A DNA stretch of 64,000 bases from Alphaproteobacteria bacterium. Lineage in GTDB: Bacteria > Pseudomonadota > Alphaproteobacteria > UBA9219. Below, in pieces: positions 9,862-39,037 of the stretch. A model generated the notes under the pieces. It did not search any database and was not told the DNA's origin. It was given only the letters and a program-made list of their open reading frames with translations. Every line of letters starts with the position of its first letter. Position 1 is the stretch's first letter. The position numbers and the translations under genes were made by a program. Where the stretch lies: positions 3,469 to 67,468 of the forward strand of contig WRDR01000006.1 of the NCBI GenBank assembly GCA_009779745.1. Direction: 5' to 3'.

Positions 9862-9904
9862 TTCCCAATTAAAAACTGGCACACTATTTGCTTGTATCTA
9901 TCGT

Positions 9905-10612: not shown

Positions 10613-10613
10613 T

Positions 10614-10665: not shown

Positions 10666-10680
10666 TACACGAGGCTCTAA

Positions 10681-11787
10681 ATGAATCTTTCCCTCAAAGA
10701 AATATCAGCCGTCCTGGACGGCAAATTAATAGGCGATGGCACTGTTTCTGTTACTAAAGTATCCAGTCCTTCTGACAACTTTGATGACTCCTCACTTGTA
10801 GTTGCTATGGATAAGAAATTTCTGCAAGCAGTCAAGGATTCCAGAAAAATACCTGTTGCCGCAGTTGTTTCCGGCAATGAAGAGGATTCTGATTTCATCG
10901 CCAACCGCATAATTGTGAAGCGTCCTAGGCTTGCTATGGCATTGTTAACTAAGCTGTTTTTTAAGCCGGTATCTGTCATAGACGGGATTCACAAAACTGC
11001 GGTTGTTGAAGAAGGCGCAAAGATTGGAGACAATCCTTCTATCGGAGCTTTGTGTTACATAGGGAAAAACACCTGTATAGGCGAAAATGCAGTGATTCAC
11101 CCTCAGGTTTATATCGGCGAGGGCGCAGTCATAGGAGATAATGCGACTATATACTCGGGCGTAAGAATAGGCGCAGGCACTAAGATTGGCGGCAACGCTA
11201 TTATTCATTTCAATGCTGCGATTGGAGCAGACGGGTTTAGCTTTGTAACGCCTATGGAAGGGAGCGTTGAGGCTGCGAAGAGTTCCGGAAGCACTAATGT
11301 TTCTGCCTTTAATAACAATATCATAAAGATATATTCTTTGGCTCCGGTCGTGATAGAAGATGATGTTGAGATTGGTCCCTGCACTAACATAGACATGGGC
11401 ACTATATCTTCTACTAGGGTGGGAAAAGGCACCAAGATTTGCAGCAATGTACAGATAGGGCATAATGTTGCTGTCGGTGAGAACTGTATTTTGTGCGGCG
11501 GAGTCGGCATAGCCGGAAGCGCAAAAATCGGCAATAGGGTTGTCTTAGGAGGCGCAGTCGGCGTTGCGGATCACGTTATAATCGGAGACGATGCAATGGC
11601 AATGGCAATGAGCGGCATAGCCGGGAATATTGCGTCCAAGACTATAGTTTCAGGCGTGCCCGCCCTTCCCAGAGAAACAGCAAATAAAATAGTATTTGCA
11701 ATGATGAGAATGCCTAAGACTATGGAAAAACTGCAAGAACTTTTCGCAAAAGCCGAGGATTTTGAAAAAATGCTCGAGAAAAATTAA
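10681..11787 (+). CDS. lpxD: UDP-3-O-(3-hydroxyacyl)glucosamine N-acyltransferase
   Basis: 368 aa with left-handed beta-helix hexapeptide repeats ('IGDNATIYSGVRIGAGTKIGGNAIIH'). Confidence 0.85.
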   Translation: MNLSLKEISAVLDGKLIGDGTVSVTKVSSPSDNFDDSSLVVAMDKKFLQAVKDSRKIPVAAVVSGNEEDSDFIANRIIVKRPRLAMALLTKLFFKPVSVIDGIHKTAVVEEGAKIGDNPSIGALCYIGKNTCIGENAVIHPQVYIGEGAVIGDNATIYSGVRIGAGTKIGGNAIIHFNAAIGADGFSFVTPMEGSVEAAKSSGSTNVSAFNNNIIKIYSLAPVVIEDDVEIGPCTNIDMGTISSTRVGKGTKICSNVQIGHNVAVGENCILCGGVGIAGSAKIGNRVVLGGAVGVADHVIIGDDAMAMAMSGIAGNIASKTIVSGVPALPRETANKIVFAMMRMPKTMEKLQELFAKAEDFEKMLEKN

Positions 11788-11862
11788 ACTGGACGAAAAA
11801 TTAATAACATGGTAACTTCAGCTTTCTTTTATTGTTTTTAGAGTGTTATATAGGGAGAAATT

Positions 11863-12111
11863 ATGACCCAGCTGGATGATGTCCTTGATATAGTTGCGAA
11901 AAAAGCTATGATAGACAGAAGCAAGCTCGTGCCTGAAGCCAAGATTGCGGATTTGAACATAAGCTCTCTGGATATGGTCGAGGTTATTTTTGCACTTGAA
12001 GATAAGTTCGGTATAGAGCTGCCTTTTAATGCTAACACCTCCGGGCAGGAGTTTCAAACAGTGGCGGATGTTATAAAAATGGTCGAAAATTCTTTGGCTA
12101 ATAAAAAATAG
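11863..12111 (+). CDS. acyl carrier protein, a specialised AcpXL-like ACP rather than housekeeping AcpP
   Basis: 82 aa with phosphopantetheine-attachment motif 'LNISSLDMVEV'. Lies beside lpxD. Confidence 0.65.
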   Translation: MTQLDDVLDIVAKKAMIDRSKLVPEAKIADLNISSLDMVEVIFALEDKFGIELPFNANTSGQEFQTVADVIKMVENSLANKK

Positions 12112-12121
12112 GAGAACTGAT

Positions 12122-12418
12122 ATGGCTGATATTAATGAAGAAGACCTGAAGAAAAATGTTAAAGATAAAGACACATGGCTGCGGTTTGTATTTTTAATAC
12201 TATTTGGAATAGCCTTGTACTTTATCATGATAGTGGTTTGTATCAGCTCTCTTGTGCAGTTTTTAGCTAAATTGTTCAGCGGTTCTGCCTTGTCCAGCCT
12301 TTCCGAATTCGGAGGCAATTTGGCAAAATATCAGGCGCAAGTTACATCATATCTGACGTTTGCATCTGATGACAAGCCGTTTCCTTTTGTACCCTTTCCA
12401 TGCTGCGGAAATAAGTAA
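12122..12418 (+). CDS. small membrane protein, hypothetical
   Basis: 98 aa with one hydrophobic span 'WLRFVFLILFGIALYFIMIVVCISSLV'. Co-directional with the ACP. Confidence 0.4.
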   Translation: MADINEEDLKKNVKDKDTWLRFVFLILFGIALYFIMIVVCISSLVQFLAKLFSGSALSSLSEFGGNLAKYQAQVTSYLTFASDDKPFPFVPFPCCGNK

Positions 12419-18241: not shown

Positions 18242-19357
18242 TTGTTTTTAAATAACTCTGGGGATTCTCCTGTGCCTACTGCAAAACATAAGCATATAGT
18301 TTCTGAACGTAAGGTATTACTGCTTTTTAGTGCTATGGCATTATGTGTCTCGGCGTTTTCATCGGCTTCTCCGGCTTACGCCCAAGAGATAGTCGATTCG
18401 ATTCCGATGGCAACAACGGGTACGGAAAATTCACTTAACGGAATAGCAATACCTTCTCTGCCGACAGCGGATATTTCTACTGATGCCAGCCGTTTGATTT
18501 TCGAGGCGCAGCAAAGCGCATTACAGGCTCAGGAAGCGGCATTACGAGAGACCGTGCGCATGGAACAAGAGCATAATAAAGAATCCTTCAACAGGGCTGC
18601 GTTTAGTTTTATGCCGTTGTCTAATGAACAAATACGCGCATTCATGAAGAAGTACGAGGCAAACCAGAAAGCCACTCAGCCGCCTTCTACCGGAAATCCC
18701 AAAGGACAGACGAAAATTCAGACTATTTCTTTGGATCCCGGCATAGATCCTCCTGTTGTAGAGCTTAATCCCGGCTTCATAACTACGATTACTCTGGTTG
18801 ATGTTACGGGTCAGCCTTGGCCTGTGCTTGACGTAGGAGTCGGAGGAAACTTTGAAGTTTCTCCTACAAGGTCCGGCTCTCATGTGATACGAATCATGCC
18901 TCTCACCAGAGTAGCGACCGGAGTATTGTCTATCATGCTCAAAGAGCTGCCTACGCCGGTAATCATGAAGCTTACTTCCGGAGGACCTAGGGTTGATTTA
19001 CGCTATGATGCCAGAATCGCCAAGTTCGGTCCCGGGGCAAGACCTCAGATAATCAACCGCCCGCGTCTTCAGGCCGGAGATGAGATTTTATCTATGATAC
19101 TGGAAAATGTGCCTCCCCGTGAAGCAGTGAGAATGAATGTAGGAGGTCTTGATAACAGAACAAAAGCTTGGATGCTGAACAGAAAAGTTTATGTAAGAAC
19201 GCCGCACTCTTTATTATCTCCGGCGTGGAATTCAAGCGTAACATCTGCTGACGGCACTACGGTTTATGAGATTGGGTCGGCTCCTGTCCTTTTGATGTCT
19301 GATAATGGAGCCATAGTCCGTGCTACAATTTCCGCGAGGGCAGATAACGATGAATAA
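18242..19357 (+). CDS. VirB9/DotH(IcmK)/TraN-like type IV secretion outer-membrane core protein (putative)
   Basis: Secreted protein (h-region 'VLLLFSAMALCVSAFSSASPAYA'). The likely start is GTG at 18272 after 'GGGGA'. Its stop overlaps the start of a clear VirB10 homolog (ATGAATAA coupling). The family call rests on context and size. Confidence 0.45.
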   Translation: MFLNNSGDSPVPTAKHKHIVSERKVLLLFSAMALCVSAFSSASPAYAQEIVDSIPMATTGTENSLNGIAIPSLPTADISTDASRLIFEAQQSALQAQEAALRETVRMEQEHNKESFNRAAFSFMPLSNEQIRAFMKKYEANQKATQPPSTGNPKGQTKIQTISLDPGIDPPVVELNPGFITTITLVDVTGQPWPVLDVGVGGNFEVSPTRSGSHVIRIMPLTRVATGVLSIMLKELPTPVIMKLTSGGPRVDLRYDARIAKFGPGARPQIINRPRLQAGDEILSMILENVPPREAVRMNVGGLDNRTKAWMLNRKVYVRTPHSLLSPAWNSSVTSADGTTVYEIGSAPVLLMSDNGAIVRATISARADNDE

Positions 19358-20807
19358 CAACACAGAAGATGAAGACAACAACGAATTTCTGGAAGAGGAA
19401 TTCAATACTGAAGACTTCTCTAATGACGGCTCTGATAATATGAATTCGGATGACGAGCCGAGAGATGAAATTACACAAAAGAACACTAATCCGTTAGTGA
19501 AGTTTTTGATATTGGTTATAGCTGTTTTTGCAGTTATAGCAGCGGCCGTGAAGTTTTTCAGCAGCGAAGATAAGACTAAACTGATAACTAAAATGACTCC
19601 GCCGCCCGCATTGAACGAGGCACCCGGAGGAGCGGCTTCTCCGTATCACCAACAGCAAACGAAAATGGCTGACGAGCAGAGAGTGCAGGACGCCATTCAG
19701 TACGGACAAAGCGCAATGCCTACTCCTATAGGCAATCCGGCAGATAAGTCTGATTTCGGAGGCTTTGCCAGAAAAGAGGATCCGTTAAGAGAACTAAGAG
19801 CGGAGCAGGAGCTGTTAAGAAGACAGATTCAGCAGGTACAGCAAAGACCTGCTGCGCCTTTTGATGCGTCTTTGGCAAGGATAATGCAGAGATATATGGA
19901 AGGACTCATTACAAGCTGGGCGCCAAGCAGAATGGCTGTAATACCGGGATTCGGAGATGAACCTGCTGCCGGAGGCGGTCAATACGGAGCCGGAGGCGGT
20001 TATCCGGGGTATGGAGCCAGAACCAATGATAATGTGCTGGTAAGAGTCGGAACAGTGAGCTACGCACAATTATTGACTGAAGCCAATTCTGATGTACCCG
20101 GACCTATACTGGCGCAGATAGTTTCCGGACCTTTGGCAGGATCAAGAGCCATTGGGTCTTTCCAAGTAGCTTATGGATACGATCGTTATTTGGTGATGCG
20201 TTTCACGGTAGCGGCAAAAGACAAGAAGGAGTATCAGATAAATGCTATCGCCTTAGACCCAGATAACACTCTGGCAGGCATGGCAACGGAAGTGGACGAG
20301 AGATATTTCACAAGAGTAGTTCTGCCGGCAGCAGCAAGTTTCTTGTCAACTTTCGGAAATGCTTTAGGCAGTACGGATACGAATGTAGCAATGAACGGCG
20401 GAGCTACAGTGATAACGTCCTCCAAACAGGGCTTCAAGGAAGGACTGTATTCCGGACTCGGAGGAGCGTTTGATACTGTAGGAACGTTTTTTCAGGATCA
20501 GGCTAACCGCACCAGACCGCTGGTTAGAGTAGCGGCCGGCACGCCTATGGGGTTGTTCTTCGTATCCTCGGTCATGGAGTCCGGAGCACCGGCAGCAGGA
20601 GCAATGCCAATGCCCGGTGCCGGAATGCCGGGGCAGCAGGGTATGGCAGGGCAACAGCAGCAGCAAGGACCATACAATCCGCGTCAGCCTTCTTATGCGC
20701 CGGTTTACGGCAGCCCTCAGGCTAATGTGGGAAGTTTTCCCAACAACCACCAAGTAGATCAAGGCGTCTATAACAGCGGAAACATGACTATCTATGGAAA
20801 TAGATAA
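19350..20807 (+). CDS. VirB10/DotG(IcmE)/TrbI-family type IV secretion protein
   Basis: Short cytoplasmic N-terminus, one TM ('LVKFLILVIAVFAVIAAAV'), a Pro-rich linker and a conserved VirB10 C-domain ('LLTEANSDVPGPILAQIVSGPLAGSRAIGSF', 'INAIALDPDNTLAGMATEVDERYF'). The ATG at 19350 overlaps the upstream stop. The track's 19320 start is a GTG. Confidence 0.75.
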   Translation: MNNNTEDEDNNEFLEEEFNTEDFSNDGSDNMNSDDEPRDEITQKNTNPLVKFLILVIAVFAVIAAAVKFFSSEDKTKLITKMTPPPALNEAPGGAASPYHQQQTKMADEQRVQDAIQYGQSAMPTPIGNPADKSDFGGFARKEDPLRELRAEQELLRRQIQQVQQRPAAPFDASLARIMQRYMEGLITSWAPSRMAVIPGFGDEPAAGGGQYGAGGGYPGYGARTNDNVLVRVGTVSYAQLLTEANSDVPGPILAQIVSGPLAGSRAIGSFQVAYGYDRYLVMRFTVAAKDKKEYQINAIALDPDNTLAGMATEVDERYFTRVVLPAAASFLSTFGNALGSTDTNVAMNGGATVITSSKQGFKEGLYSGLGGAFDTVGTFFQDQANRTRPLVRVAAGTPMGLFFVSSVMESGAPAAGAMPMPGAGMPGQQGMAGQQQQQGPYNPRQPSYAPVYGSPQANVGSFPNNHQVDQGVYNSGNMTIYGNR

Positions 20808-20941
20808 GTGTGGAGTTAAGAATATACACCAATTCCACACTCCAAACTCCACACTCCTTAAAAAGAAGTTGTGTCTTTGGTTAACTTAGTATACGCTGTA
20901 CAGTGGATCGATTTACCATATTTGCTGTTAGGAGCTTTCGT

Positions 20942-22105
20942 ATGACTGATGAACAAGAAACCCGCTTGGACGAAAATATTTCTGAAGAAGAGACCCTTAA
21001 TTTTCAGCAAGATTCTGATATGAGGCCGCCAGAACAAGATTCTGATATAAGGCATCAGGAAGAGGTTGAGCTTCCTTTCGTCGAGTACGATCTTAACGAA
21101 GAGCCACCTGAAATGGAAGTCCAGCAACAGCCTGCTGCTACTCCCGGAAGACAGAGATCTCCTGCGCTGCCGATAACGGCAGCAGCTATAGCTGTTATAA
21201 TTTTGGGTTCCGTGGCGTGGGTCAAATTTTCCGGGAACGAGATGGTATCTAAGGATTTGAGCGGAATAAGCGCACCTATGCCTGACATAACGCTGCCGGC
21301 ATCAGAGATTAGAGAGAAGGAAGTGCTGGCTGTAGCCTCGCCGGATAATGGTAATGTTGCGGTGTATACTGCGGATATGGCGGAGCTTGCTCTCCCTGTT
21401 GCAGAGATAAAGGATATAAGAGAAGCCCCGGCTGCGCCTGCTGCGGTTATTGCAGAGGCTATGCCGACTAATGTAATTCCTATTCCTGAGAAGGCTGAAG
21501 CACTGGTTGCATTACCTGCTGAAAGTACGGAAACGTCTGTAAAAGAAGCCTCTTCAATTATAAAAGATGAGGTTGTTCCCGCAGAGACGGCTCCTGCTGT
21601 TGCTGCGGATGTTGATATGCTTAAAGCCAAAGTATCCTCTTTGGAAGAGAAGATAGCGGCATTGGAAAGCAGGATTGCTTTGTTGACTGCTCCTCCTAAG
21701 ACGGCTGCGGCAACTGCACCGAAGGCAGCAGCAGCCCCTGCAAAGCCTGCGCCGAAGCCTCAGACTGTTGCGGCCTCCAAACCCGCCAACGCAGTTAACG
21801 CTGTCAATATAACTGATGACAGCAGGCCGGCTCAAAGACTTGAGCTTCCTAAAAAAGCCCAGACTGCGCCTCAGCTTAGAGCACCTACGCTGGACAGGGC
21901 TAAGCCTTCCAATCTTAGGGTTGTCAGCAATTATGTAATAAGAGCAGCAAAACCCGGTCAGGCATGGATAGCTAAAAGCGCATCCGCCACTGATTTGCGT
22001 GAGGTTCATGTAGGGGATACTGTCCCCGGACTCGGCAGGATTCAGTCTATATTCTTGGATAGTAACGGCTGGTCTATTGTCGGCACGGAAGCAGTATTAA
22101 GGTAA
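20942..22105 (+). CDS. bitopic Pro/Ala-rich periplasmic protein, DotF(IcmG)/TraP-like by position and topology (putative)
   Basis: Acidic cytoplasmic N-terminus, single TM 'ALPITAAAIAVIILGSVAWV', coiled coil 'KAKVSSLEEKIAALESRIALL', PA-rich linker and a small C-terminal domain. AGGAG lies 7 nt before the ATG at 20942. Confidence 0.35.
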   Translation: MTDEQETRLDENISEEETLNFQQDSDMRPPEQDSDIRHQEEVELPFVEYDLNEEPPEMEVQQQPAATPGRQRSPALPITAAAIAVIILGSVAWVKFSGNEMVSKDLSGISAPMPDITLPASEIREKEVLAVASPDNGNVAVYTADMAELALPVAEIKDIREAPAAPAAVIAEAMPTNVIPIPEKAEALVALPAESTETSVKEASSIIKDEVVPAETAPAVAADVDMLKAKVSSLEEKIAALESRIALLTAPPKTAAATAPKAAAAPAKPAPKPQTVAASKPANAVNAVNITDDSRPAQRLELPKKAQTAPQLRAPTLDRAKPSNLRVVSNYVIRAAKPGQAWIAKSASATDLREVHVGDTVPGLGRIQSIFLDSNGWSIVGTEAVLR

Positions 22106-25022: not shown

Positions 25023-25068
25023 GAAATGTGGAATTAGGAGCTAATTTCAAATTTCACATTATCACAGT
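25023..25068. terminator. 15-bp inverted repeat (TGTGAAATTTGAAAT ... ATTTCAAATTTCACA) between the convergent secA and mrdA genes. It overlaps the mrdA stop codon
   Basis: Seen in sequence. Confidence 0.45.
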
Positions 25069-26900
25069 TTCCTGTTCTGACACTCAATAAGTAAATCCCG
25101 TGCTATCGGCGCGGAAAGAGCACCGCTGCCTCCGTGTTCTATCACAACAGCAGCAGCATATTTCGGCTTTTTATACGGCGCATACGCAACAAATAAAGAG
25201 TGATCTCTTTCCCTCCACTCTAAATCCTCATTTTTCATAACGCCTCGTTTCCGCTCTGCTTCCGATATGCGCCGCACCTGCGCGGTTCCGGTCTTTCCGG
25301 CCATTTCTTTATCTTCTTCCAGTATCCGCGCTCCAAACCCCGTAGAGCCCGGCATATTAACTGCACTGAACATTCCGTACTGTACTATTTCCAGATGTTC
25401 CTTGTTTATCCCGATGTCCTGCCACCTCTTGTGAAACGGCTCTTCTAATTCTTGCTCCGAACACTTTGTCATACGGGGCTTTACTGCGAATCCTCCGTTA
25501 GCAATGCGCGCAGTCATCACTGCAAGCTGTAAGGGAGTCGTCAAAATAAATCCGTGCCCGATAGACGTAATAAGGGTTTCCCCCTGCTGCCATCTTTCTT
25601 TCTTTACAGTCTGTTTCCATATTCTCCCGGGCACTACGCCCGTTCTTTCGTTCGGCAAATCTATTCCTGTAATATCCCCCAGCCCAAAACGCAGCGCCAT
25701 TGCCTGCAGTTTGTCTATTCCCATTCTTCTGCTGGCTTCATAAAAATACGGATCGCAAGAGTGCGCCATTGCCTCTATCAAATTCAGTCTGCCATGCCCG
25801 TCCCTCTTCCAGCAATGAAATTTTCTCTCTCCAAACTCATAGCTGCCGGAACAATAAACTCTTTCTCCGTATTCCATGACTCTGGCCTCCAGTGCAGCAA
25901 GCGCAGTCATCATTTTAAACGTAGAGCCCGGCGCATACACTCCGCTTATAGCTCTGTTCATAAGAGGGGCTTTAGTGTCGTTGTTCAGAATATCCCAGTT
26001 CTTTTTGCTTATCCCGAAACTGAATAAATTAGGATCAAATGACGGACGAGACACCATCGCCAATATTTCTCCCGTATGAATATTCATCACTACCGCGGAT
26101 GCCGCAATCGTATGAGATATTCTGGCTGCTGCAAGCTGCTGCAAATTTATATCCAGAGACAGCTGCACATCTTCTCCTGACACCGGCTCTCTTCTGGATA
26201 AAGCGCGCACTACGTTTCCTCTGGCATTCACTTCCATTTCCTTTGTTCCGGAAATCCCGCGCATCTTCATTTCATAGGCTTTCTCCATTCCTTTTTTTCC
26301 TATCAAAAATCCGGACGTTCTGAGAAGCCTCTTCTCTATATCGTTTTTTACCGTGTCCGTTTCCTCTTTCGCCACTGCTCCTACATACCCTAAAATATGC
26401 GCTGTTATCTCTCCGTATGGATATACTCTGACTTCTCCTGAATCAACATCTGCGCCTATAAGATCCGGCGATGACACCGCTATAGAATCCATTTGCTCTC
26501 GGCTTATGTTATCCTTCACTATAATAGAATTCAGATCGTTCTGAGTTCGCAAATCTCTTTCTATTCTCTTTCTGTCGGATTCCTCTATGGTCACAAACTT
26601 GGACAGCTTATCCAACAGCTCATCAACCTTCTTCACTTGAGACGGCAGTATTACTACTCTGAAAGTCTGATCATTGATTGCCAGAGGAACCCCGTATCTG
26701 TCCAGAATCCGCCCTCTTTTCGGCAGAATAATACGTACGCTGATTCTGTTATTCTCTGCGCGGCGGCGGTACATTCTCCCTTGCACTATCTGCAAATAGT
26801 ACAGCCTTCCGGCTATCACGGAAAATAGCAATGCCTGAGCTCCTCCCAATAAAAGAGCTCTTCTGGTAAAAATCTTAGCTTTTTCGTTATCTTTAGACAT
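25062..26900 (-). CDS. mrdA: penicillin-binding protein 2 (peptidoglycan D,D-transpeptidase MrdA)
   Basis: 612 aa with N-terminal TM, 'STFK' and 'KTGT' transpeptidase motifs. Confidence 0.9.
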   Translation of the reverse strand: MSKDNEKAKIFTRRALLLGGAQALLFSVIAGRLYYLQIVQGRMYRRRAENNRISVRIILPKRGRILDRYGVPLAINDQTFRVVILPSQVKKVDELLDKLSKFVTIEESDRKRIERDLRTQNDLNSIIVKDNISREQMDSIAVSSPDLIGADVDSGEVRVYPYGEITAHILGYVGAVAKEETDTVKNDIEKRLLRTSGFLIGKKGMEKAYEMKMRGISGTKEMEVNARGNVVRALSRREPVSGEDVQLSLDINLQQLAAARISHTIAASAVVMNIHTGEILAMVSRPSFDPNLFSFGISKKNWDILNNDTKAPLMNRAISGVYAPGSTFKMMTALAALEARVMEYGERVYCSGSYEFGERKFHCWKRDGHGRLNLIEAMAHSCDPYFYEASRRMGIDKLQAMALRFGLGDITGIDLPNERTGVVPGRIWKQTVKKERWQQGETLITSIGHGFILTTPLQLAVMTARIANGGFAVKPRMTKCSEQELEEPFHKRWQDIGINKEHLEIVQYGMFSAVNMPGSTGFGARILEEDKEMAGKTGTAQVRRISEAERKRGVMKNEDLEWRERDHSLFVAYAPYKKPKYAAAVVIEHGGSGALSAPIARDLLIECQNRKL

Positions 26901-26908
26901 ATATCCTG

Positions 26909-27412
26909 TTATTCTTCATGCTTGAGAAAGTACCGCTGTATTTTGATGAAGAGATAACACGGTAAAGGAAATAATGCTACAGTAAACAGCGACTGCACAA
27001 AAGCATTTTCATAAGAATAGAACTGCACGTCTATGATGCACTGTATGAACCACTGAAAGAAAATAGCCGTAAAAGAGACAAGAGCAAAACTTAGCCACAA
27101 GACAAAAAAGGACTGTCCTCTGAGGAAAACAGAGAGTCTCAAAATAGCCTGATACGCTGCGGTCCATACTAGGGCAGTAATGCCCATAGTAGTTCCGGCA
27201 ATAATATCTGTCAGAAGCCCTATAGCAAAAGCAGCCAATACCGGAAACAAATCCGGTCTGAACGATGCCCAATAGAACAGAGCGATAAAAGCGAAAGGAG
27301 GCATGACCATGCCGATATACGGCACAGACCAGATGCTTGCTCCTAGGAACGCCAGCAAAACAGCAGATAAAAAAGGTATGGCTGTTCTTATAGGATACCG
27401 CTGAAAATTCAT
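26909..27412 (-). CDS. mreD: rod shape-determining protein MreD
   Basis: 167 aa polytopic hydrophobic protein between mreC and mrdA. The overlapping ORF 27009-27506 is Cys/Arg-rich and spurious. Confidence 0.6.
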   Translation of the reverse strand: MNFQRYPIRTAIPFLSAVLLAFLGASIWSVPYIGMVMPPFAFIALFYWASFRPDLFPVLAAFAIGLLTDIIAGTTMGITALVWTAAYQAILRLSVFLRGQSFFVLWLSFALVSFTAIFFQWFIQCIIDVQFYSYENAFVQSLFTVALFPLPCYLFIKIQRYFLKHEE

Positions 27413-27421
27413 TGTTTGATT

Positions 27422-27515
27422 CCCTATTTTGCCTATTCCCGCCTTCGCGGGAATGACAGCCGGAGGGACAGCAACCTTCTACCACTACCCTGCACCAACT
27501 CCACACTTATAACTC
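27422..27515. repeat. MITE-like composite repeat, copy 1 (reverse orientation). Core palindrome ATTCCCGCCTTCGCGGGAAT plus an AACTCCACAC end
   Basis: Shares the core and flanks with the copies at 31452, 39115 and 50703. Confidence 0.75.
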
Positions 27516-28376
27516 CTAATTCCTAGTCCCTAGTTCCTCATTTCTGAAGTTGACTAGTTTCACGATGTTGATTTTGTCGAGTTTAGTATACGGAACAACA
27601 GAGAGAGAACCGTCTGCGCCTTCTACAATCTGCCCTACCGGAATGTTAGGAGGGAAAATGCCTCCGTGTCCGGAAGTAACGACAGCATCGCCTTCCTGCA
27701 CTAGGGCATCTTTTGCTAGGAAGAGCAATTTAGGCTCCATAGAATTGTCTCCGGCAAGAACGGCCCTGTCGCCGGATTTTGCGATCATGACCGGAATTCT
27801 GGAATTGGCATCTGTGATGAGCCAGACTCTGGAAGTCCAAACGCCGACTTCGACGACTCGCCCGACTAATCCCTCACCTGTAACTACCGCCATATCGGGA
27901 GCCGCGTTATTTTCAGCTCCTGCCGCAACAATGATGTTTCTTGATAACGCTGCGCCTGCATCGGCAATGACTCTGGCAGAGATGAATTCTGTCTTAGGTT
28001 CTGTTTGATAATTAAGAAGAGCTCTAAGCTCGGTATTTTCTTTCGCCAAAGAAACAGTGCTGTTTTTCCAAGCCAGCAGTTTTTTGTTTTCTTCTATGAG
28101 CAGCTGATTTTCAGAGTACAAATTGACCATCTCGTCGACCGAGGCAATGAGATTCTGAACAGCGAAAACAGGTCTGGACAGAGCCGCCAAAACCGGAGCG
28201 GAAGTATCTATGACAGAAGTACGTACTGATGCGACAACTAAAGGCTGGGATTTGGCTAAAATAATAATGCAGATAGAAAGAAGTATGAAAAAAACAAAAT
28301 AGAATTTCTGTACCAAACCTTTCCACTGAATGGCGATATTAGAGTTCTTAGCAAAATACGAACGCCCGGAAACCAT
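27516..28376 (-). CDS. mreC: rod shape-determining protein MreC
   Basis: 286 aa with N-terminal TM, coiled coil and a beta-rich C-domain. Confidence 0.85.
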   Translation of the reverse strand: MVSGRSYFAKNSNIAIQWKGLVQKFYFVFFILLSICIIILAKSQPLVVASVRTSVIDTSAPVLAALSRPVFAVQNLIASVDEMVNLYSENQLLIEENKKLLAWKNSTVSLAKENTELRALLNYQTEPKTEFISARVIADAGAALSRNIIVAAGAENNAAPDMAVVTGEGLVGRVVEVGVWTSRVWLITDANSRIPVMIAKSGDRAVLAGDNSMEPKLLFLAKDALVQEGDAVVTSGHGGIFPPNIPVGQIVEGADGSLSVVPYTKLDKINIVKLVNFRNEELGTRN

Positions 28377-28516
28377 TGCACAATCTTTGAATAATAAAAA
28401 AATAACTAAGTAAGGCTAACAAAAAGCAGTACCTTATTCGACTGCATTTTCAAACCATATTTTTAAAAAAAGGTTAAGTTTTATAATTTTTTTCAAATAT
28501 ATCGATTTTTTTAAAA

Positions 28517-29728
28517 TTATCCTACCATCGGGATTTTTACGCGTCTTTTCTCCGGGTCCTTTAAGTAAGCATTCAGTGTAGCTACGGCATTATCGACTCG
28601 CGGAACAACTAGAGCTCTTTCTGCGAGTTCTTCTGCCATAAAGTGGGCCATGGCACCTGCTCCTTCAGAGTGAAAAGCCCTGCGCCCGAGATTGTTCAAA
28701 GGATACCATAAATTGCGGTCTTCAGCACGCAGCCACAAGAAAGCAGCAGGAGCTAAAACGCCTCCATTATCTCTGGCCCACTTCAAAGCAGCCAATACCG
28801 CAGTCGTTCTCCATGCGTGTTTTTGCATGATAAGCTCCAGCTCTTCAGTGTTTTTAGGGTCTGAAAGAATTTTTCTAATTTCAGCTTTAAGTTCACTGCC
28901 GAGCGCAAAACCGGTTTTAGGATCCCAAGCCTGAGCCAGCCTGCCCAACAGCTCGTCGCTTTCTTCTCTGCGCTGAACTCCCCTCAGGGCAAACGCAGCG
29001 AGAAGAGCCTGTATATGTAAAGGCATCGCCGTTACGGATTTAAACCTGCTTCCGAGCTGTTTTATAAAAGCTCTTCTTGCAGCCGCCTTATCCGGCACTC
29101 CGTTTTCTATTGGAACACGGTTCCACGCAATCCATTCTTCAGGAGACAGAGCTTCGGCAAACAGCGGCAGTTTTTCCGGAACCTTTCCGCCTAAGAGTCT
29201 TCCGGACTTGGAAGGATTAATCTTTAGCATAGGAGAAATAACGGGCCACATTTTAGCCTGAGCAGCAATCAGAGATTCCAGAGTATGCTTTGTTTTGAAT
29301 TTGTTGTAAGGAGAAGTAAACAAAGTATACACAATGATTATAACCAGTGCGGCAACGGGAAGCCACCTGTAATACCTCGCGAAGTACGCTCCTAGCTGCA
29401 CTATGGAAGTGCCTGTCAGCCGGTAATACTTATCAGCCTCCTCCGGATATAAAGAGCTGAGTATCTCTGTGCCGAAGCAGGCATGTGCTGCTTGGACGGA
29501 CGCCTGAGAAACGCCGTCAATATGAGCGACTCGAAGCCAAACAAGACAGCCGTCCAACTCTCCGCCTTTGAAGAGATTCAAAATCCATATTTCGCCGAAC
29601 CTGAGCCAGCGAAAGAAATTATCGAGCCAGAAATTCCCGGTTGCATACCAAATCAGCCACGCAAGCCCGCATACAAACACTGCCACCAGCAGCAGCATAA
29701 TCATTGGGTCGTCTTTATTATCACTCAT
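28517..29728 (-). CDS. hypothetical inner-membrane protein with two TM segments and a large cytoplasmic domain. Possibly DotM/IcmP-like
   Basis: 403 aa with TM1 at about 9-32, TM2 at about 122-140, then a roughly 260 aa soluble domain. It occupies the position normally held by mreB. The DotM suggestion rests on topology and size only. Confidence 0.3.
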   Translation of the reverse strand: MSDNKDDPMIMLLLVAVFVCGLAWLIWYATGNFWLDNFFRWLRFGEIWILNLFKGGELDGCLVWLRVAHIDGVSQASVQAAHACFGTEILSSLYPEEADKYYRLTGTSIVQLGAYFARYYRWLPVAALVIIIVYTLFTSPYNKFKTKHTLESLIAAQAKMWPVISPMLKINPSKSGRLLGGKVPEKLPLFAEALSPEEWIAWNRVPIENGVPDKAAARRAFIKQLGSRFKSVTAMPLHIQALLAAFALRGVQRREESDELLGRLAQAWDPKTGFALGSELKAEIRKILSDPKNTEELELIMQKHAWRTTAVLAALKWARDNGGVLAPAAFLWLRAEDRNLWYPLNNLGRRAFHSEGAGAMAHFMAEELAERALVVPRVDNAVATLNAYLKDPEKRRVKIPMVG

Positions 29729-29729
29729 C

Positions 29730-30668
29730 TTAACTCCTCAACTTCCTAATAATATCATCAAGCTGATCCAAGTCAGTATAATATATAGTCATTGTACCGG
29801 ATTTGCCTTTAGGAGCTATTTTAATTTTCAGACCTATAACACGTTCTATCTCTTTTTCCAATGCCAGAGTGTCCGCATTCCGCTGTTCCGTAGAGCTATG
29901 TTTTTTATGTATCTGAGGATTTTCTTGACTCTTTTTCGCCAGAGTCTCTGCCTGCCTAACGTTTAACCCTTTTTTAACTATTTCCAAGGCCAGTTTCATA
30001 GGATTGTCCGCCACTACTACGGCGCGCGCATGACCTACTGTTATTTTGCCCTCTAACAGCATATCTTTTACTCCTTCAGGCAACCCTAGCAACCGCATCA
30101 TATTGGTAATATACGGGCGGCTCTTTCCTACTATCTTTGAAAGAGCGTCCTGAGTATGCCCGAATTCCTCTATCAGCCTTTTATAGCCCTCTGCCTCTTC
30201 CAGCGGAGACAACTCTTCTCTTTGTATATTCTCGATAATCCCGAATTCCATAGCCTCTCTGTCCGAGAGGTTTTTCACCAGAACAGGCACATTATGCAGC
30301 CCTGCCAGCTGCGCCGCGCGCCAGCGTCTTTCTCCGGCTACTATTTCGTATCTGTTTTTTTCATTTTTAAACGGTCTTACTATCAGAGGTTCCAGAATGC
30401 CCCTCTCCTGCATGGAAGCTGCCAGCTCCTTCATAGCTCCTTCTTCAAAATACCTTCTGGGCTGAAACTGTCCGGACTGCAGCCACCCGGTAGGTATCTT
30501 TTGCAGCTCGCTTTTTTCAACGCTGGCTTGAACAACAGAAGTTTTCTCTCCCGCATTATAAGAAGTGTCCACGTCTCCTAGTAATGCAGAAAGCCCTCTT
30601 CCCAACGGGGACGGTTTAACAGCAGGATTAGCCATATCTTTCTCCTCTTTCATTTTCCATTTCTTCAC
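29730..30668 (-). CDS. parB: chromosome partitioning protein ParB
   Basis: 'GERRWRAA' ParB box and HTH in a 312 aa ORF. True start may be the internal Met near 30635. Confidence 0.9.
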   Translation of the reverse strand: MKKWKMKEEKDMANPAVKPSPLGRGLSALLGDVDTSYNAGEKTSVVQASVEKSELQKIPTGWLQSGQFQPRRYFEEGAMKELAASMQERGILEPLIVRPFKNEKNRYEIVAGERRWRAAQLAGLHNVPVLVKNLSDREAMEFGIIENIQREELSPLEEAEGYKRLIEEFGHTQDALSKIVGKSRPYITNMMRLLGLPEGVKDMLLEGKITVGHARAVVVADNPMKLALEIVKKGLNVRQAETLAKKSQENPQIHKKHSSTEQRNADTLALEKEIERVIGLKIKIAPKGKSGTMTIYYTDLDQLDDIIRKLRS

Positions 30669-31446
30669 TCTCTATAAACTCTCTTTTAATAAACTCACTT
30701 GCAAGCTGCATGTACGCCTTAGAGCCTGAACATCTTAAATCATATAAAAGTACAGGCTTACCGTAAGACGGAGCTTCCGAGACTCTCACATTTCTGGGGA
30801 TAACCGTATCGTAAGTTTTTTCTTTGAAAAATGTCCTTACATCTTTAGAAACAGCGTCCGAAAGGCTGTTTCTTTTATCATACATAGTTAAGACAACGCC
30901 CTGAATATAGAGTCCCGGATTAAATCTGACTCTTACTGCTTCTATTGTTTGTAAAAGGCTGGAGACTCCCTCAAGAGCGTAAAATTCCGGCTGCAAAGGT
31001 ATCAAAATGGAATGCGAGGCTATCAGCGCATTAAGAGTTATAAGATTCAAAGAAGGAGGACAATCTATTAAAATAATATCATAATCTTCAGAACTTCGAG
31101 TAAGAGCATCTTTCATTCTGAACTCTCGCCCGGGAGTATTTACAAGCTGTATCTCTGCACCGGCCAGATCCGTAGAAGACGTAACAATATGGAGGTTCGG
31201 AACCGGAGTCATCTGAACGACATTTTCTACAGCCAGCCCGTCAAACATGAGTTCATAACAGCCGGGACCTCTGGCAGACCGTACAAGCCCCAATCCGGTG
31301 GAAGCATTTCCCTGAGGGTCAGCATCAACCACCAGCACCTTTTTTCCTATAGCCGCCAGAGCAGTCGCCAAGTTTACGGCAGTAGTCGTCTTCCCTACTC
31401 CGCCTTTTTGGTTTACTATAGATATGATTTTACAATCTGCGTTCAT
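30628..31446 (-). CDS. parA: chromosome partitioning ATPase ParA/Soj
   Basis: Deviant Walker A 'KGGVGKTTTAVNLA' in a 272 aa ORF. Confidence 0.9.
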   Translation of the reverse strand: MNADCKIISIVNQKGGVGKTTTAVNLATALAAIGKKVLVVDADPQGNASTGLGLVRSARGPGCYELMFDGLAVENVVQMTPVPNLHIVTSSTDLAGAEIQLVNTPGREFRMKDALTRSSEDYDIILIDCPPSLNLITLNALIASHSILIPLQPEFYALEGVSSLLQTIEAVRVRFNPGLYIQGVVLTMYDKRNSLSDAVSKDVRTFFKEKTYDTVIPRNVRVSEAPSYGKPVLLYDLRCSGSKAYMQLASEFIKREFIESEEMENERGERYG

Positions 31447-31451
31447 TCTCT

Positions 31452-31545
31452 TTTGTCATTCCGGCTGTCATTCCCGCGAAGGCGGGAACGGGAATAGGGT
31501 CCTCCAACAAAAATTCAAAACTTCGCTTGGCGAAGTTTTTCAATA
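31452..31545. repeat. MITE-like composite repeat, copy 2. Its second hairpin (AAAACTTCGCTTGGCGAAGTTTT) encodes the last 7 aa and the stop codon of rsmG
   Basis: Core 'tgtcattcccgcgaaggcgggaa' at 31466-31488. The rsmG C-terminus 'KLRQAKF*' reads through the hairpin. Confidence 0.75.
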
Positions 31546-32195
31546 ATAACAATCCGCCCTGTATCGGACGTTTTCGAGGGTATCAGTCTTTCGTCAAAAG
31601 TCCAGTACTTTTTCGCTTCTAAGAGCTCTTCCTGTACCCTTTCACCTTTAAGAAAAATAAGCATAGTGTCTTTATGTGAGATTTTGGAAGAATATTTGAA
31701 CAGCTCATTCATGGGCTTCAAGGCTCTTGCAGTTATAATGTCGTATTTTTTATTAACTATAGCCTCTATTCTATGGTTCCGGACTATTACGTTCAGATTG
31801 AGGGTTTTAACCATATGACTTAAAAAAAGAGCTTTTTTCTTGATGCTTTCTATAGCTTCTATTTTGATATTTGCGTTTTTCTGTTTTGCCAGAATTGCCA
31901 GTACTAAACTTGGAAAACCCGCCCCTGCCCCAAGGTCAGCTATGCTGACAACCTTCTCATTTTCCATTTTCCATTTTCCATTTTCCACTAAAAGAGGGTA
32001 TAGCTGTGCACTATCCAAAAAGTGCCTCTCGTATATATGCGGTATCGTGCCGCCGGAAACTAAATTCATTCTCTCATTCCAAGAGACGAGATTTTTCTCA
32101 AACTCTATAAAATCATTTATAGAAAATTCCTCTCCGGTAACTTCCGCCAGTCTTTTTTCAAATTCTTCTATTTCGTTCATTTTTTCGTTCACCAT
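31515..32195 (-). CDS. rsmG: 16S rRNA (guanine527-N7)-methyltransferase RsmG, carrying an in-frame heptamer-repeat insert
   Basis: SAM motif 'ADLGAGAGFPS'. The insert 'ENGKWKMENEK' is encoded by (TGGAAAA)x4. Confidence 0.8.
   Translation of the reverse strand: MVNEKMNEIEEFEKRLAEVTGEEFSINDFIEFEKNLVSWNERMNLVSGGTIPHIYERHFLDSAQLYPLLVENGKWKMENEKVVSIADLGAGAGFPSLVLAILAKQKNANIKIEAIESIKKKALFLSHMVKTLNLNVIVRNHRIEAIVNKKYDIITARALKPMNELFKYSSKISHKDTMLIFLKGERVQEELLEAKKYWTFDERLIPSKTSDTGRIVIIEKLRQAKF
31953..31987. repeat. (TTTTCCA)x4 plus one degenerate unit, in-frame inside rsmG
   Basis: Counted directly at 31960-31987. Confidence 0.85.
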
Positions 32196-32245
32196 GAAAC
32201 TTTATGAGTCAATTCAACAAGTTAACAAATGGTTAAAATCCTCCC

Positions 32246-34096
32246 TCATTCTACTTTCCTCTTTACAAATCTCAACAACGCCACTACAGCCGCCGGCGTC
32301 ATTCCCGGTATTCTCGAAGCAGCCCCTAGTGTTCTCGGCTTTATTTTACTAAGCTTTTGCTTCAATTCAGTAGACAAACTGCCGACCGCCTCTAAATCCA
32401 AATCCTCCGGCAAAACTAGGTTTTCATCTCTCTTAAAAGCCTTGATGTCCTGCTCCTGCCTGCTTACATAGCCCCTGTATTTAGCCTCTGTTTCTATCTG
32501 TTCTCTTATATCAACACCTATACTGGCAAGCTCCGGCCACTTATTCAACAACTGTTCGAATTCTATGTACGGGTATGACAATAAATCAAACGCAGACCTT
32601 ATAACTCCGTCCGAATTCACCTTTATCCCATGGGCTGTCAGCTTATTGGGCGAATCCTTGCACCTATCCGTTAAATCTCTGGCAGCAGCTAATTTATCCA
32701 TTTTCCCATAAAAAGCCCCTGCCCGCCTCTCACCTACACAGCCTATGCTTATTCCCTCTGGAGTCAGCCTTTTATCCGCATTATCAGAACGCATGGTCAG
32801 CCTATATTCCGCTCTGGAAGTAAACATTCTGTACGGATCTGTCACACCTTTTAAAATTAAATCATCTATCATTACTCCGATGTATCCCTGCGACCGGTCT
32901 ATTACTAATTCCCCTTTTCCCAGCACTCTAAGAGCTGCATTCAGCCCCGCCATTATTCCTTGAGCCGCAGCCTCTTCATATCCGGTTGTCCCATTAATCT
33001 GTCCGGCAAAATACAAATTTTCTACCGGTTTCGTCTCCAGAGTCGGCTTTAGCTCTCTGGGATCACAATAATCATATTCTATAGCATACCCGAATTGCTC
33101 TATTTTCACACTCTCCAGTCCGACAATACTATGTATAAACGCATCTTGGATTTCTATAGGCAAGGACGTAGATATTCCGTTCGGATACACTGTGCCGGTA
33201 TCCAGTCCCTCCGGCTCTAGGAATATCTGATGGCTCTTTTTATCGGCGAATCTTACTACTTTGTCCTCTATGGACGGACAGTACCGCGGACCTATGCTTT
33301 TTATCTGCCCCGAATACATAGGCGCAAGATGCAGATTGCTTTTTATAATCTCCAGCGCCTTATCCGTAGTTCTGGTTATCCCGCATTCTATTTGTTTATT
33401 GGTTATTTCTTTGGTCATAAAAGAAAAGACCGGAGGCGGATTATCTCCGGCCTGCATTTGAACTGCCTCCCAGTTAATGCTCTTTCCGTCCAGTCTTGCC
33501 GGAGTGCCGGTCTTGAGCCGCCCTAATACAAACCCGTGCTTTTCTAAGGAAAGGCTAAGTCCTTTGGACGGCGACTCCCCTATTCTGCCCCCCTCTTTTG
33601 TTTCCAGTCCCTGATGCAGGATTCCTCTTAAAAAAGTCCCTGTAGTAACAATTACTGTTTGAGAAAATATTTCTTCATTATTATCTGTTTTTACGCCTAT
33701 GGCCCTTCCTCCTTTGACCATAATTTCTTCAACAGAAGCCTGTTTAATGATTAGGTTTTCTTTCTCGCTTAGTATCTTTTTCACTGCCTTCTTATACAGT
33801 TTTCTGTCTTCCTGCGCTCTTATTCCCTGAACAGCAGGACCTTTGCTGCTGTTCAGCATTCTGAACTGAATGCCGCCCATATCCGCAGCCCTTCCCATTA
33901 GCCCGTCAAGCGCATCTATTTCTCTTACTAAATGCCCCTTCCCCAGCCCTCCTATGGCAGGATTACAGGACATTTCGCCAAGAGTCTCTGTTCTTTGAGT
34001 AATCAACAGGACGCTGACACCCATTCTGGCAACAGCGTATGCAGCCTCACACCCGGCGTGTCCCCCGCCTATAACTATTACTGAAAATTTTTCCAT
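32246..34096 (-). CDS. mnmG: tRNA uridine 5-carboxymethylaminomethyl modification enzyme MnmG (GidA)
   Basis: FAD-binding '[12 protein letters not shown]' in a 616 aa ORF. Confidence 0.95.
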
Positions 34097-35391: not shown

Positions 35392-35813
35392 CAATGCTTT
35401 CTGTGAAACCCGCAGCAAAAACCTGCGAAACATTCATGTATATTTATAAAATACTGTGTATAAGTCGCTTCCTTTTACAAATGCAACAAATACAGCCAAC
35501 ACAATTAATTATTAAATAACATACAATTAAACACAATAATAACTATAATAATAGGTATGTGAAACACGTGCATAAACCACCCAAATTTTACCAACACAAC
35601 TAACACACAATAACAATATATTGTTAATACAATCTTAATAATAGTTACCAACAGCCTTTTCCATTAACAAAAAATTAACACTTTATAAATAATTTGTTAA
35701 TAATTAATAAATAAAAAAGTAACAATTTTAATCCACACATTTAAGACATACAACTAACAACCACATCTTTTAAATTTATTTTTATTATTTTTAAGAAAAA
35801 ATTCAAAAAATTA

Positions 35814-35842
35814 TTGACTGCCTTATCAAACAATGCTATGTT
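35814..35842 (+). promoter_or_regulatory. sigma70-like promoter upstream of rho (TTGACT-N17-TATGTT)
   Basis: Hexamers and 17-nt spacer read directly. Start site would fall near 35850. Confidence 0.4.
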
Positions 35843-35969
35843 CCTACCCAACTCGGATACACTAGTTACCTAATCTAATTTATCTCCGGGTCATATTCTT
35901 ACAAAAAAACGAGCTATATAATCTATCGTTACATAGAATATTATCGTTATCCCCACAATAAGGTTTTTT

Positions 35970-37331
35970 ATGTCTATAATGAATTTACGTGACCTCAAGG
36001 CGAAAACTCCTGTTGAGTTGCTGAAAATGGCAGAACAATACGGAGTCGACAACGCCAGCTCCATGCGCAAACAGGATATGATTTTTGCTATCCTCAAAGC
36101 TGTAGGCGAAACTCAAGACCAAGTAATATCCGGCGAAGGCGTACTCGAAGTCCTTCCTGACGGCTTCGGCTTTTTAAGGTCCCCTGAAGCCAACTATTTA
36201 CCCGGTCCGGACGACATATACGTATCTCCTTCCCAGATTAGAAAACTAAACATGCGCACCGGCGACACAGTCGAATGCGAAATACGCTCTCCAAGAGAAG
36301 GTGAGAAATATTTTGCTCTCGTCAAAGTGAACAAGATTAATTTTGAATTGCCGGAAAAAGCAAGACACAGAATAGGCTTCGACAACCTGACTGCGCTGTA
36401 TCCTAAAGAGCATTTAAAACTCGAAACTCAAGATCCAACCAAAAAAGAATACATCTCTAGGATTATCGATCTCGTATCTCCCCTGGGTAAGGGTCAGAGA
36501 GGGCTGATAGTAGCTCCCCCCAGAACAGGCAAAACAGTTATGATGCAGCAGATAGCTCATTCAATAACTACAAACCACCCGGAAGTATATCTCATAGTTC
36601 TGCTTATTGACGAACGCCCTGAAGAAGTTACGGACATGGCAAGATCAGTTAAAGGAGAAGTTATAAGCTCTACCTTTGACGAGCCTGCTGTACGGCATGT
36701 TCAGGTTGCTGAAATGGTCATAGAAAAAGCCAAAAGGCTTGCGGAGCAAAAAAGGGACGTTGTGATTTTGCTCGACAGTATTACAAGATTAGCCAGAGCC
36801 TACAACACGGTTGTTCCTTCATCTGGAAAAGTGCTGACCGGAGGCGTTGATGCGAATGCTTTGCAAAGACCGAAAAGATTTTTCGGAGCTGCCAGAAACA
36901 TAGAAGAGGGCGGTTCTTTGACGATTATAGCCACGGCATTAATAGACACCGGAAGCAGAATGGACGAAGTGATTTTCGAAGAGTTCAAAGGAACCGGAAA
37001 CTCTGAAATTATTCTGGACAGGAAACTTTCCGACAGAAGAACCTTCCCGTCAATTGATATAACCAGATCCGGAACCAGAAAAGAAGAGATGCTGGTTGAC
37101 AAGGGCACTATGTCCAAGATGTGGGTGCTGAGACGTGTGCTTAGTCCAATGGGCGTGATTGATGCGATGGAATTCCTGCTGGATAAACTGAAGTACTCTA
37201 AGACGAACAGCGATTTCTTTGACAGTATGGGAAATAGTCCGGTCGGCGGGGCAGGAGGCGAAGTTCCTGTTCAGCGGGTAGGACGCGGAAGGTCTTCTTC
37301 ATCTGGGAGTACTAATTCTGATAAGGAGTAA
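35970..37331 (+). CDS. rho: transcription termination factor Rho
   Basis: N-terminal '[14 protein letters not shown]', RecA-like core with Walker A 'PPRTGKT', and an atypical roughly 35-aa RG/S-rich C-terminal tail. Confidence 0.95.
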
Positions 37332-37375: not shown

Positions 37376-38218
37376 ATGGCCTTTCATATTCACCTAATAT
37401 CCGACTCAACAGGCGAGACTATAGAAAACATAGCCGGCGCATGTCTGGCTCAGTTCGAGGGAGTCGAAGTAAAAAAACACCACTGGCATCTTATAAAGAC
37501 CATGCGTCTTTTGAATACCGTGAAAGAGAACATAAAGAATACTAACTGTCTTGTTTTGTATACGCTTGTGAACACAGACCTTAGATATGATTTAGAGAAG
37601 TTTTGTAAAGACAACAACATTCCGTGTATAGCCGTGTTAAGGTCTGTGCTGATTGGAATGATGGATTTGTTTCAGGCAGAGCCTACTCATAATATCGGAA
37701 GGCAGCACATACTGGACGACAAATATTTTGCCAGAATTGACGCTATAGACTTTACTATGGAGCACGATGACGGGCGGGGAATCGATACCATAGAAAAGGC
37801 GGATATAGTGGTACTCGGAGTATCCCGCACATCAAAAACGCCTACGTGTTTTTATTTGGCGTGCAAGGGATATAAGGCGGCTAATATACCGTTTGTTACC
37901 GGAGTTAATTTGGATTACGTGCGCGAGTTGAAAAATCCTATTATAATTGGGCTTACCAGAGACATGGGGAGCCTGATAGCTATAAGGAAAAACAGGCTTT
38001 TGTCTCTGAATGAAACTCGTGAAACATCGTATACGGAGCCTGAAATGGTTAGGGAAGAGATGCAGGAAGCAAGGAGATTTTTCTCTAAAATCGGGTGTCA
38101 TGTAATAGACGTTTCCAGAAAATCCATAGAAGAAACATCATCTGAGATATTAATGCTGTTGTCTGCGGTTAAGGCAGCCAGAAAACTAAAAGAAGGCAAG
38201 AACGTATTCCCCTCTTAA
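37376..38218 (+). CDS. PEP synthase / pyruvate phosphate dikinase regulatory protein (bifunctional kinase-pyrophosphorylase, DUF299)
   Basis: P-loop 'VVLGVSRTSKTP' in a 280 aa ORF. Confidence 0.75.
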   Translation: MAFHIHLISDSTGETIENIAGACLAQFEGVEVKKHHWHLIKTMRLLNTVKENIKNTNCLVLYTLVNTDLRYDLEKFCKDNNIPCIAVLRSVLIGMMDLFQAEPTHNIGRQHILDDKYFARIDAIDFTMEHDDGRGIDTIEKADIVVLGVSRTSKTPTCFYLACKGYKAANIPFVTGVNLDYVRELKNPIIIGLTRDMGSLIAIRKNRLLSLNETRETSYTEPEMVREEMQEARRFFSKIGCHVIDVSRKSIEETSSEILMLLSAVKAARKLKEGKNVFPS

Positions 38219-38413: not shown

Positions 38414-39037
38414 ATGATAACTTCGAAAAAAATGCGTTCACAAAAGGGTTTCACCCTGACCGAAATAGCGATTGTTCTCGGTATTATGGGATTGATCTTA
38501 GGTGCTATCTGGACTGCAGCTTCTGCAGTTTATTCTAACAGACGTTCTGAGGAAGCTCAGATAGCTGTTTTACAGGCTGTTCAGGCTGTACGTGTTCTTT
38601 ACTCCACCCAAGCCCAGCTTGATGAGTTAGGAAATATGAACGAGCGTCTTTCTATGGCGGGAGCTTTGCCTAAGAACCTTGTCGTTTACAATAACGACGG
38701 CTCTTTCAAAGACACTGCCGGTCCTTTCCCTAATGGTAAGTTCGAAGTAACCGCAATCGATGAACGGACATTTGCTGTTACTATGTCTTTAGTTCCCAGA
38801 GAGAACTGCATTAACATAATTCCTATTATTGGCGGTAACTCTCGTGATCCCGGGCTTCTCGAAGTCATAGTCTCTCCCAGCACCTCTAGCTATATATCGC
38901 AGCCTCAATGTGCTAATGAGCATCCTATGACACAACCTGCTACGGTTGGCGGTGCTACTACCGGCGGCGACAATACTACAACGGGTCACTGTGCCAGTGC
39001 TATGAACCAAGTTTCTTTCTGTTTCTCACTGAAATAA
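38414..39037 (+). CDS. type IV pilin / pseudopilin
   Basis: Prepilin N-terminus 'KG|FTLTEIAIVLGIMGLILGAIW' and a C-terminal Cys pair 'HCASAMNQVSFC'. No pilus assembly genes nearby. Confidence 0.75.
   Translation: MITSKKMRSQKGFTLTEIAIVLGIMGLILGAIWTAASAVYSNRRSEEAQIAVLQAVQAVRVLYSTQAQLDELGNMNERLSMAGALPKNLVVYNNDGSFKDTAGPFPNGKFEVTAIDERTFAVTMSLVPRENCINIIPIIGGNSRDPGLLEVIVSPSTSSYISQPQCANEHPMTQPATVGGATTGGDNTTTGHCASAMNQVSFCFSLK

Follow-up and report, generated by a model that had tools for sequence, protein, structure and literature searches.

A DotM/IcmP homologue displaced from its type IVB secretion cluster to the parAB operon in a termite-gut alphaproteobacterium

The window examined here (the whole 64-kb stretch of contig WRDR01000006.1) carries, at positions 28517–29728 on the minus strand, an open reading frame (ORF) of 403 amino acids that begins with ATG and lies between the partition gene parB, upstream, and the cell-shape genes mreC, mreD, and mrdA, downstream. 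The NCBI record names its product only as ‘hypothetical protein FWF23_00020 [Alphaproteobacteria bacterium]’. From the DNA alone, the original prediction had described a membrane protein with two transmembrane helices, at residues 9–32 and 122–140, that stood where mreB should be and possibly resembled DotM/IcmP, a coupling-complex protein of type IVB secretion systems (T4BSSs). The ORF is real, and its two hydrophobic segments are borne out by two approaches. Hydropathy (Kyte–Doolittle values above 1.6 over 19 residues) places the hydrophobic segments at about residues 9–31 and 122–141, from hydropathy windows starting at 5–14 and 119–123, and an AlphaFold2 model computed from a 46-sequence family alignment—with a mean predicted local distance difference test score of 88.9—has long helices at 8–53 and 106–138. 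The N-terminal membrane-anchor feature of the DotM family is therefore present in the window protein. The C-terminal domain is all-helical in the model and contains the cytoplasmic DotM_C domain, at residues ~216–391. Across the family alignment 62 columns are invariant, including R338 and the motif NNLGRR-x-FH; the cysteines C61 and C84, which lie between the two hydrophobic helices, are likewise invariant.

Pfam, NCBIfam, PDB sequence, and fold searches all point to DotM, in line with the original guess, and none of them assigns the protein to another family. The Pfam profile DotM_C (PF23127) matches residues 216–386 over profile positions 2–171 of 172 (E=3.8e-48; 164.4 bits against a cutoff of 27), while DotM_IcmP_IVB (NF033890) is the best NCBIfam match, at 174.4 bits, and the sole NCBIfam model with a significant E-value. 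Searching PDB sequences retrieved the Legionella IcmP(DotM) entry 6SZ9_B (E=4.7e-25, residues 119–391), and the real matches were all Legionella IcmP/DotM. When the 46-sequence family profile was compared with Legionella DotM, the two aligned in three colinear stretches (E=4.1e-35), of which the two added, weaker ones cover the first hydrophobic helix and the second helix with its juxtamembrane region. The fold tells the same story—a Foldseek search of the AlphaFold2 model against the PDB gave 13 significant matches, every one of them DotM (5X1U, 6EXA-E, 6SZ9), with E-values of 2.8e-11 to 1.1e-8 and target template-modelling scores of 0.77–0.89, and the 14th match had E=1.3. Judged by its sequence, the protein is a clear but divergent DotM/IcmP homologue of an alphaproteobacterial subfamily, and what the NCBI record lists as hypothetical can now be assigned with confidence as a subunit of a secretion system. 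The protein adds a member to a known family; it does not point to a new kind of machine.

The closest known counterpart is DotM (IcmP) of Legionella pneumophila, a subunit of the DotL-DotM-DotN type IVB coupling complex (PDB 5X1U, 6EXA-E, 6SZ9, and 7OVB), which, like the window protein, combines N-terminal membrane helices with an all-helical cytoplasmic domain of ~230 amino acids. In the family profile the two proteins are colinear along their whole length, and they have the motifs DR-x-LWY and GR-x-x-x-SE in common. They differ most towards the N terminus, where the first ~120 residues of the window protein are barely alignable and C61 and C84 cannot be aligned to the Legionella sequence; moreover, three transmembrane helices are predicted for Legionella DotM (PMC5802825), as against the two strongly hydrophobic segments seen here. 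In the Legionella protein, the arginines R196/R197, R217, and R314/R315 bind acidic, Glu-rich effector signals (Meir et al., PMC5802825), and R314 alone among these is widely conserved (PMC5802825). This residue aligns with R338 of the window protein, the arginine that is invariant across the family alignment, and R197 is replaced conservatively by K214, at a position where the family consensus is Arg. The hosts of the two proteins also differ, being an alphaproteobacterium in one case and Legionellales in the other, as do the gene neighbourhoods: dotM adjoins dotL in Legionella, and a position beside dotL is the usual arrangement across type IVB systems (PMC5802825), whereas the window gene is joined to the parAB operon.

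Other parts of the secretion system are encoded in the window and elsewhere in the genome. The Dot/Icm-like triad that had been reported 7 kb away is indeed there, on the plus strand at 18242–22105, and comprises dotH/icmK (18242–19357; PF12293, E=1.9e-67), dotG/icmE (19320–20807; a TrbI domain, and 135.6 bits on NF033900), and a dotF/icmG-like ORF (20903–22105) that matches the IcmG/DotF model weakly (15.8 bits, E=0.008). This last ORF is 26–51% identical, over parts of its length, to the ORF that follows dotG in the clusters of relatives and occupies the same position; its product is a very fast-evolving DotF-like component. The three genes are what remains of the ancestral T4BSS cluster, which here stops at secA and does not continue to dotN-dotO-dotM-dotL. 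Following the sequence one step beyond the window end on a 155-kb ENA contig, we encountered genes for lysine/arginine-type biosynthesis and housekeeping functions, and neither dot/icm genes nor mreB. A search with DotL from a related locus (L029) recovered a 786-amino-acid DotL/IcmO homologue, P0239, which has an intact Walker A motif (GTTGSGKT) and is encoded at 10001–12361 of another contig (L093), between purC-purS and an ORF for an unknown protein of 239 amino acids. P0239 and the window DotM occur in exactly the same three samples (ERZ27257304, ERZ27257295, and JGI 3300010882), and in two submissions of metagenome-assembled genomes (MAGs) their NCBI accessions lie within ~125 of each other (MCL2473290/MCL2473395 and MCL2505277/MCL2505152). 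Base composition is consistent with this pairing, at 43.4% G+C for the P0239 contig and 44.7% for the window, compared with 54% for the other DotM-bearing MAG of the termite sample (L038). The partner ATPase DotL is thus very probably encoded in the same genome, and is also dispersed. With DotH and DotG in the window and DotL in the MAG, the genome displays the co-occurrence that is a feature of the DotM family, a setting like that of Legionella. As a separate observation, the C-terminal tail of P0239 is strikingly acidic, being rich in Asp and Glu.

The protein family has hundreds of members in MAGs of uncultured Alphaproteobacteria, many of them already annotated as ‘IcmP’ at JGI, and the MAGs concerned are labelled Alphaproteobacteria, Rhodospirillaceae, Micavibrio, or ‘Bdellovibrionales’, the order under which NCBI taxonomy places Micavibrio. 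A scan of species-representative genomes yielded 80 loci (numbered with the prefix L). The alphaproteobacterial homologues are 33–75% identical to the window protein, full length, and share its invariant residues, and most of them retain the order dotO-dotM-p190-dotL. In distant members in particular (33–57% identity), dotM lies inside a canonical T4BSS cluster, whose ancestral order is dotH-dotG-dotF-like-traQ-like-p129-dotN-dotO-dotM-p190-dotL (L028, L029, L032, L033, and others). NCBIfam models identify in one of these clusters, L029, a DotN/IcmJ protein, a VirB4-like ATPase of 1008 amino acids at the DotO position, and a DotL/TrbC-type coupling protein of 798 amino acids. A different order, gidA-gidB-parA-parB-dotM, is found in ~20 genomes whose DotM is 53–59% identical to the window protein, and within 10 kb of dotM these genomes have no dotL, dotN, or dotO. 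When 76 full-length DotM sequences are placed in a neighbour-joining tree, all parB-linked sequences, including that of the window, form one clade. This fits one ancestral event in which dotM left the cluster, often accompanied by the p190 ORF; two nested members have relocated again, one to a place after relA and the other after scpAB. The window DotM sits on a long branch of this clade, at 53–59% identity to its clade mates, whose average identity to one another is 65%.

The small p190-type ORF that separates dotM from dotL in most relatives (for example, p190 or p159 at L029:11157-11729, L007:9244-9723, and L096:11265-11717) encodes 150–190 amino acids with a hydrophobic C-terminal segment and has no NCBIfam match. 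About half of the parB-linked clade has kept it behind the orphan dotM; searches of the window and of the DotL locus found no copy in either. The product may be an undescribed accessory protein of the coupling complex. Apart from the window, no locus seen in the subfamily has mreC directly after dotM and lacks a nearby p190 ORF.

Taken together as one explanation, a DotM subunit of a chromosomal type IVB coupling complex whose gene was first relocated and then caught up in an inversion is, in our judgement, highly probable, and the window protein most likely acts as such a subunit. The data show the homology, fold, and membrane anchor of DotM, the co-occurrence with DotL, DotH, and DotG, and the history of relocation and inversion, while the mode of action is inferred by homology from work on Legionella (PMC5802825; PMC7280309). 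On this model, its N-terminal helices would anchor it in the inner membrane, and its cytoplasmic all-helical domain would dock on the DotL ATPase, probably with DotN, in a type IV coupling complex that would recruit substrates and hand them to a channel containing DotH, DotG, and DotF. Several observations weigh against this explanation. The NF033890 score falls below the equivalog cutoff of 230 bits, and it is for this reason that we place the protein in a divergent subfamily; identity to Legionella DotM is ~27–30% and largely limited to the C-terminal half of the protein. Of the five Glu-binding arginines, four are not Arg (R196→D213, R197→K214, R217→A234, and R315→N339), so substrates may be recognised in another way—scaffold and central arginine are retained, with a substrate-recognition surface that is probably different. 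The window dotM is not upstream-adjacent to dotL/icmO, as mreC comes next; P0239 is placed in the same genome by MAG-level evidence; and DotN, DotO, DotB, DotC/D, and DotA are not among the genes located for this genome, in which no MAG search was aimed at them. Finally, the DotM tree is a distance tree that carries no support values.

Upstream, dotM is packed tightly against parB, a neighbour that the original prediction did not mention. The TAA stop codon of parB (29730..30668, minus strand) lies 1 nt before the ATG of dotM, and an AGGAG Shine–Dalgarno sequence, 7 nt upstream of that ATG, falls within the 3′ end of parB. Further upstream, gidA(mnmG)-gidB(rsmG)-parA (30628..34096, minus strand) completes a co-directional block ending in parB-dotM, which is conserved in the ~20 related species-level genomes. 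A consensus scan of 28200–30000 found no terminator-like site between parB and dotM. Given the 1-nt gap, the ribosome-binding site inside parB, and the lack of an intervening terminator-like site, the window dotM is probably co-transcribed and translationally coupled with parB, so that its expression would come, at least in part, from parB read-through and translational coupling. That the clade-wide linkage is itself functional and no accident, tying synthesis or polar positioning of the coupling complex to ParAB partition and the cell cycle in these probably predatory or host-associated Alphaproteobacteria, is a bolder proposition that we consider quite improbable; if true, it would mean that dispersed secretion-system genes are wired into core cell-cycle operons.

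Downstream of dotM, and on the same strand, mreC (27516–28376), mreD (26909–27412), and the PBP2 gene mrdA (25062–26900) make up an mre cell-shape block in the order originally described. An MreB identity for the ORF at 28517–29728 was considered and rejected, since it has no match to the Pfam MreB profile (PF06723). Pfam scans that covered virtually every window ORF of 120 amino acids or more revealed none that is MreB-like, and tblastn with Escherichia coli MreB found no match, either in the window or across related loci totalling 1.38 Mb. The original prediction was thus right that the gene ahead of mreC is not mreB, but wrong to suppose that an mreB slot is occupied: in the five parB-linked relatives whose flanks reach mreC (L014, L017, L019, L021, and L024), the gene preceding mreC is in every case a PF03618 kinase/pyrophosphorylase gene. 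These five loci share the order mreC(−), kinase gene(−), rho(+), GGDEF gene(−), gidA to dotM(+), and at four loci (L008, L012, L017, and L054) the plus strand carries, a few kilobases further along, a pilin-like gene, comM, and, in most cases, dnaG. Compared with this arrangement, an ~11-kb segment of the window, from the kinase gene (37376..38218, plus strand) at its far end to dotM, has the reverse orientation with respect to both flanks, with the result that mreC-mreD-PBP2 now lies behind dotM and the pilin-like gene (38414–39037) now adjoins the kinase gene. The adjacency of dotM and mreC is therefore due to a lineage-specific inversion; dotM did not replace mreB, and mreC-mreD-PBP2 is not functionally part of the secretion system but its neighbour through the inversion.

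It follows as well that the 140-bp spacer between dotM and mreC (28377..28516) is an inversion junction. The spacer had been described as AT-rich and promoter-like; its length and AT-richness (21% G+C) are as stated, but on its minus strand the consensus scan detected neither a sigma-70-like promoter nor a terminator. Within the inverted segment, rho (35970–37331, plus strand) has an orientation relative to the GGDEF gene and gidA that is opposite to that in all parB-dotM relatives, so a second, small inversion is needed in addition to that of the kinase-to-dotM segment. The history thus began with a dotM placed between dotO and dotL, as in distant relatives, and passed through a clade ancestor in which dotM lay just downstream of parB, often with the small ORF behind it; in the window lineage, dotM then became packed tightly against parB, and the later ~11-kb inversion brought mreC-mreD-PBP2 directly behind it.

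We weighed this account against three others, of which the first concerns mobility. The gene might be a TrbA-like part of an integrated IncI-type conjugative element dedicated to MPF-I DNA transfer, as opposed to a chromosomal T4BSS that secretes effectors. TrbA of the IncI1 plasmid R64 is a distant homologue of DotM, and its system has a DotL-like coupling protein, TrbC (PMC5802825); in the relatives, IncI/TrbC/TraO/TraQ NCBIfam models match DotL, DotG, and an ORF beside them. TrbA, however, is plasmid-borne and conjugative and lies in a tra/trb operon with a relaxase, whereas the window gene is chromosomal and embedded in the gidAB-parAB housekeeping operon, with synteny across ~20 species-level genomes (DotM 55–82% identity). 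The window protein matches the DotM model, alone among NCBIfam models at significance, instead of any conjugation model; the window Pfam scans show no relaxase, integrase, or other tra genes (the relaxase was not searched for genome-wide); and the G+C content of dotM (48%) is near that of its neighbours (45–46%). Genes that are chromosomal, dispersed, and conserved in their arrangement between species speak against a mobile conjugative element, which we hold to be very improbable as the source of this gene.

A second alternative accepts the gene as dotM but not its role in secretion, supposing that an orphaned DotM has been co-opted for some parAB-linked task—in segregation, polar organisation, or the envelope—or is drifting towards loss. 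Its separation from dotL, the loss in the window of the small ORF found behind the dotM of relatives, the long branch described above, and the tight packing with parB are all features that would fit such a fate. On the other hand, the ORF is full length and keeps the 62 invariant columns, R338 and NNLGRR-x-FH included, its fold is confidently predicted, and DotL, DotH, and DotG are intact in the same MAG or window; the arrangement is moreover stable across the clade, which speaks for maintained function over decay. We consider orphaning improbable on balance. Lastly, a reading frame that arose by chance, or through mis-assembly at a contig junction, has a negligible probability. The abrupt change of functional context from parB to dotM to mreC is the one thing that would suggest it, and this candidate was rejected because the identical protein, in the same parB-dotM-mreC order, recurs on six contigs that were assembled independently of one another (ENA, JGI/NCBI, and Logan), which excludes an assembly artefact, and because homologues number in the hundreds.

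One of the three samples with the window DotM, JGI 3300010882 (scaffold prefix Ga0123354), is the source of the MAG Lab288P4bin16, in whose name ‘P4’ denotes, by naming convention, the P4 hindgut compartment. The label Lab288 stands for Labiotermes labralis, a higher termite that feeds on soil (PMC7024585), and the host of the window gene is an uncultured alphaproteobacterium of the hindgut of this termite, with a low G+C content (44.7% in the window, compared with 50–59% in related loci). A termite-gut alphaproteobacterium thus carries a Dot/Icm-like type IVB system, which hints at a host- or prey-directed lifestyle of the lineage. In the literature that we searched, Dot/Icm systems appear as a trait of Legionellales, Piscirickettsia, and Fangia, and for Alphaproteobacteria this search, whose coverage was incomplete, returned just a passing count of pT4SSi in seven marine genomes of Micavibrionales (PMC9418006). 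As the parB-linked clade demonstrates, dotM can reside in a core housekeeping operon, in stable separation from dotL, and finders that rely on gene clusters to detect T4BSSs would miss or under-call systems dispersed in this way.

Several further features of the window deserve mention. In the mreD slot (26909–27506, minus strand), two overlapping ORFs compete and gene callers differ between assemblies; the 167-amino-acid frame at 26909–27412 matches Pfam MreD and the rival of 165 amino acids, at 27009–27506 on the minus strand, has no Pfam match, which makes the former plausible as the right one. Between the GGDEF gene and rho lies a very AT-rich intergenic region of 578 bp (35392–35969) that holds 3 of the 17 one-mismatch matches to the DnaA box (TTATCCACA) in the window. 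This region, inside the inverted segment, could be oriC, in which case the rearrangement would be an origin-spanning inversion. A bactofilin gene (59774–60370, minus strand) codes for a cytoskeletal element and may be of interest in view of the lack of linkage between mreB and mreCD.

Other genes may bear on the secretion system or on contact with a host. An ORF of 284 amino acids (9758–10612, plus strand) has no Pfam or NCBIfam match, and its tblastn matches lie at most 10 kb from dotM in three distant relatives—in L061, at 8997–9401 and directly upstream of dotM, and in L047 and L048; it may be a dispersed secretion-system gene or an effector. Two further products, a 908-amino-acid autotransporter with a match to Chlamydia PMP repeats (41374–44100, minus strand) and a patatin-like phospholipase (55983–57260, minus strand), are candidate factors for interaction with host or prey.

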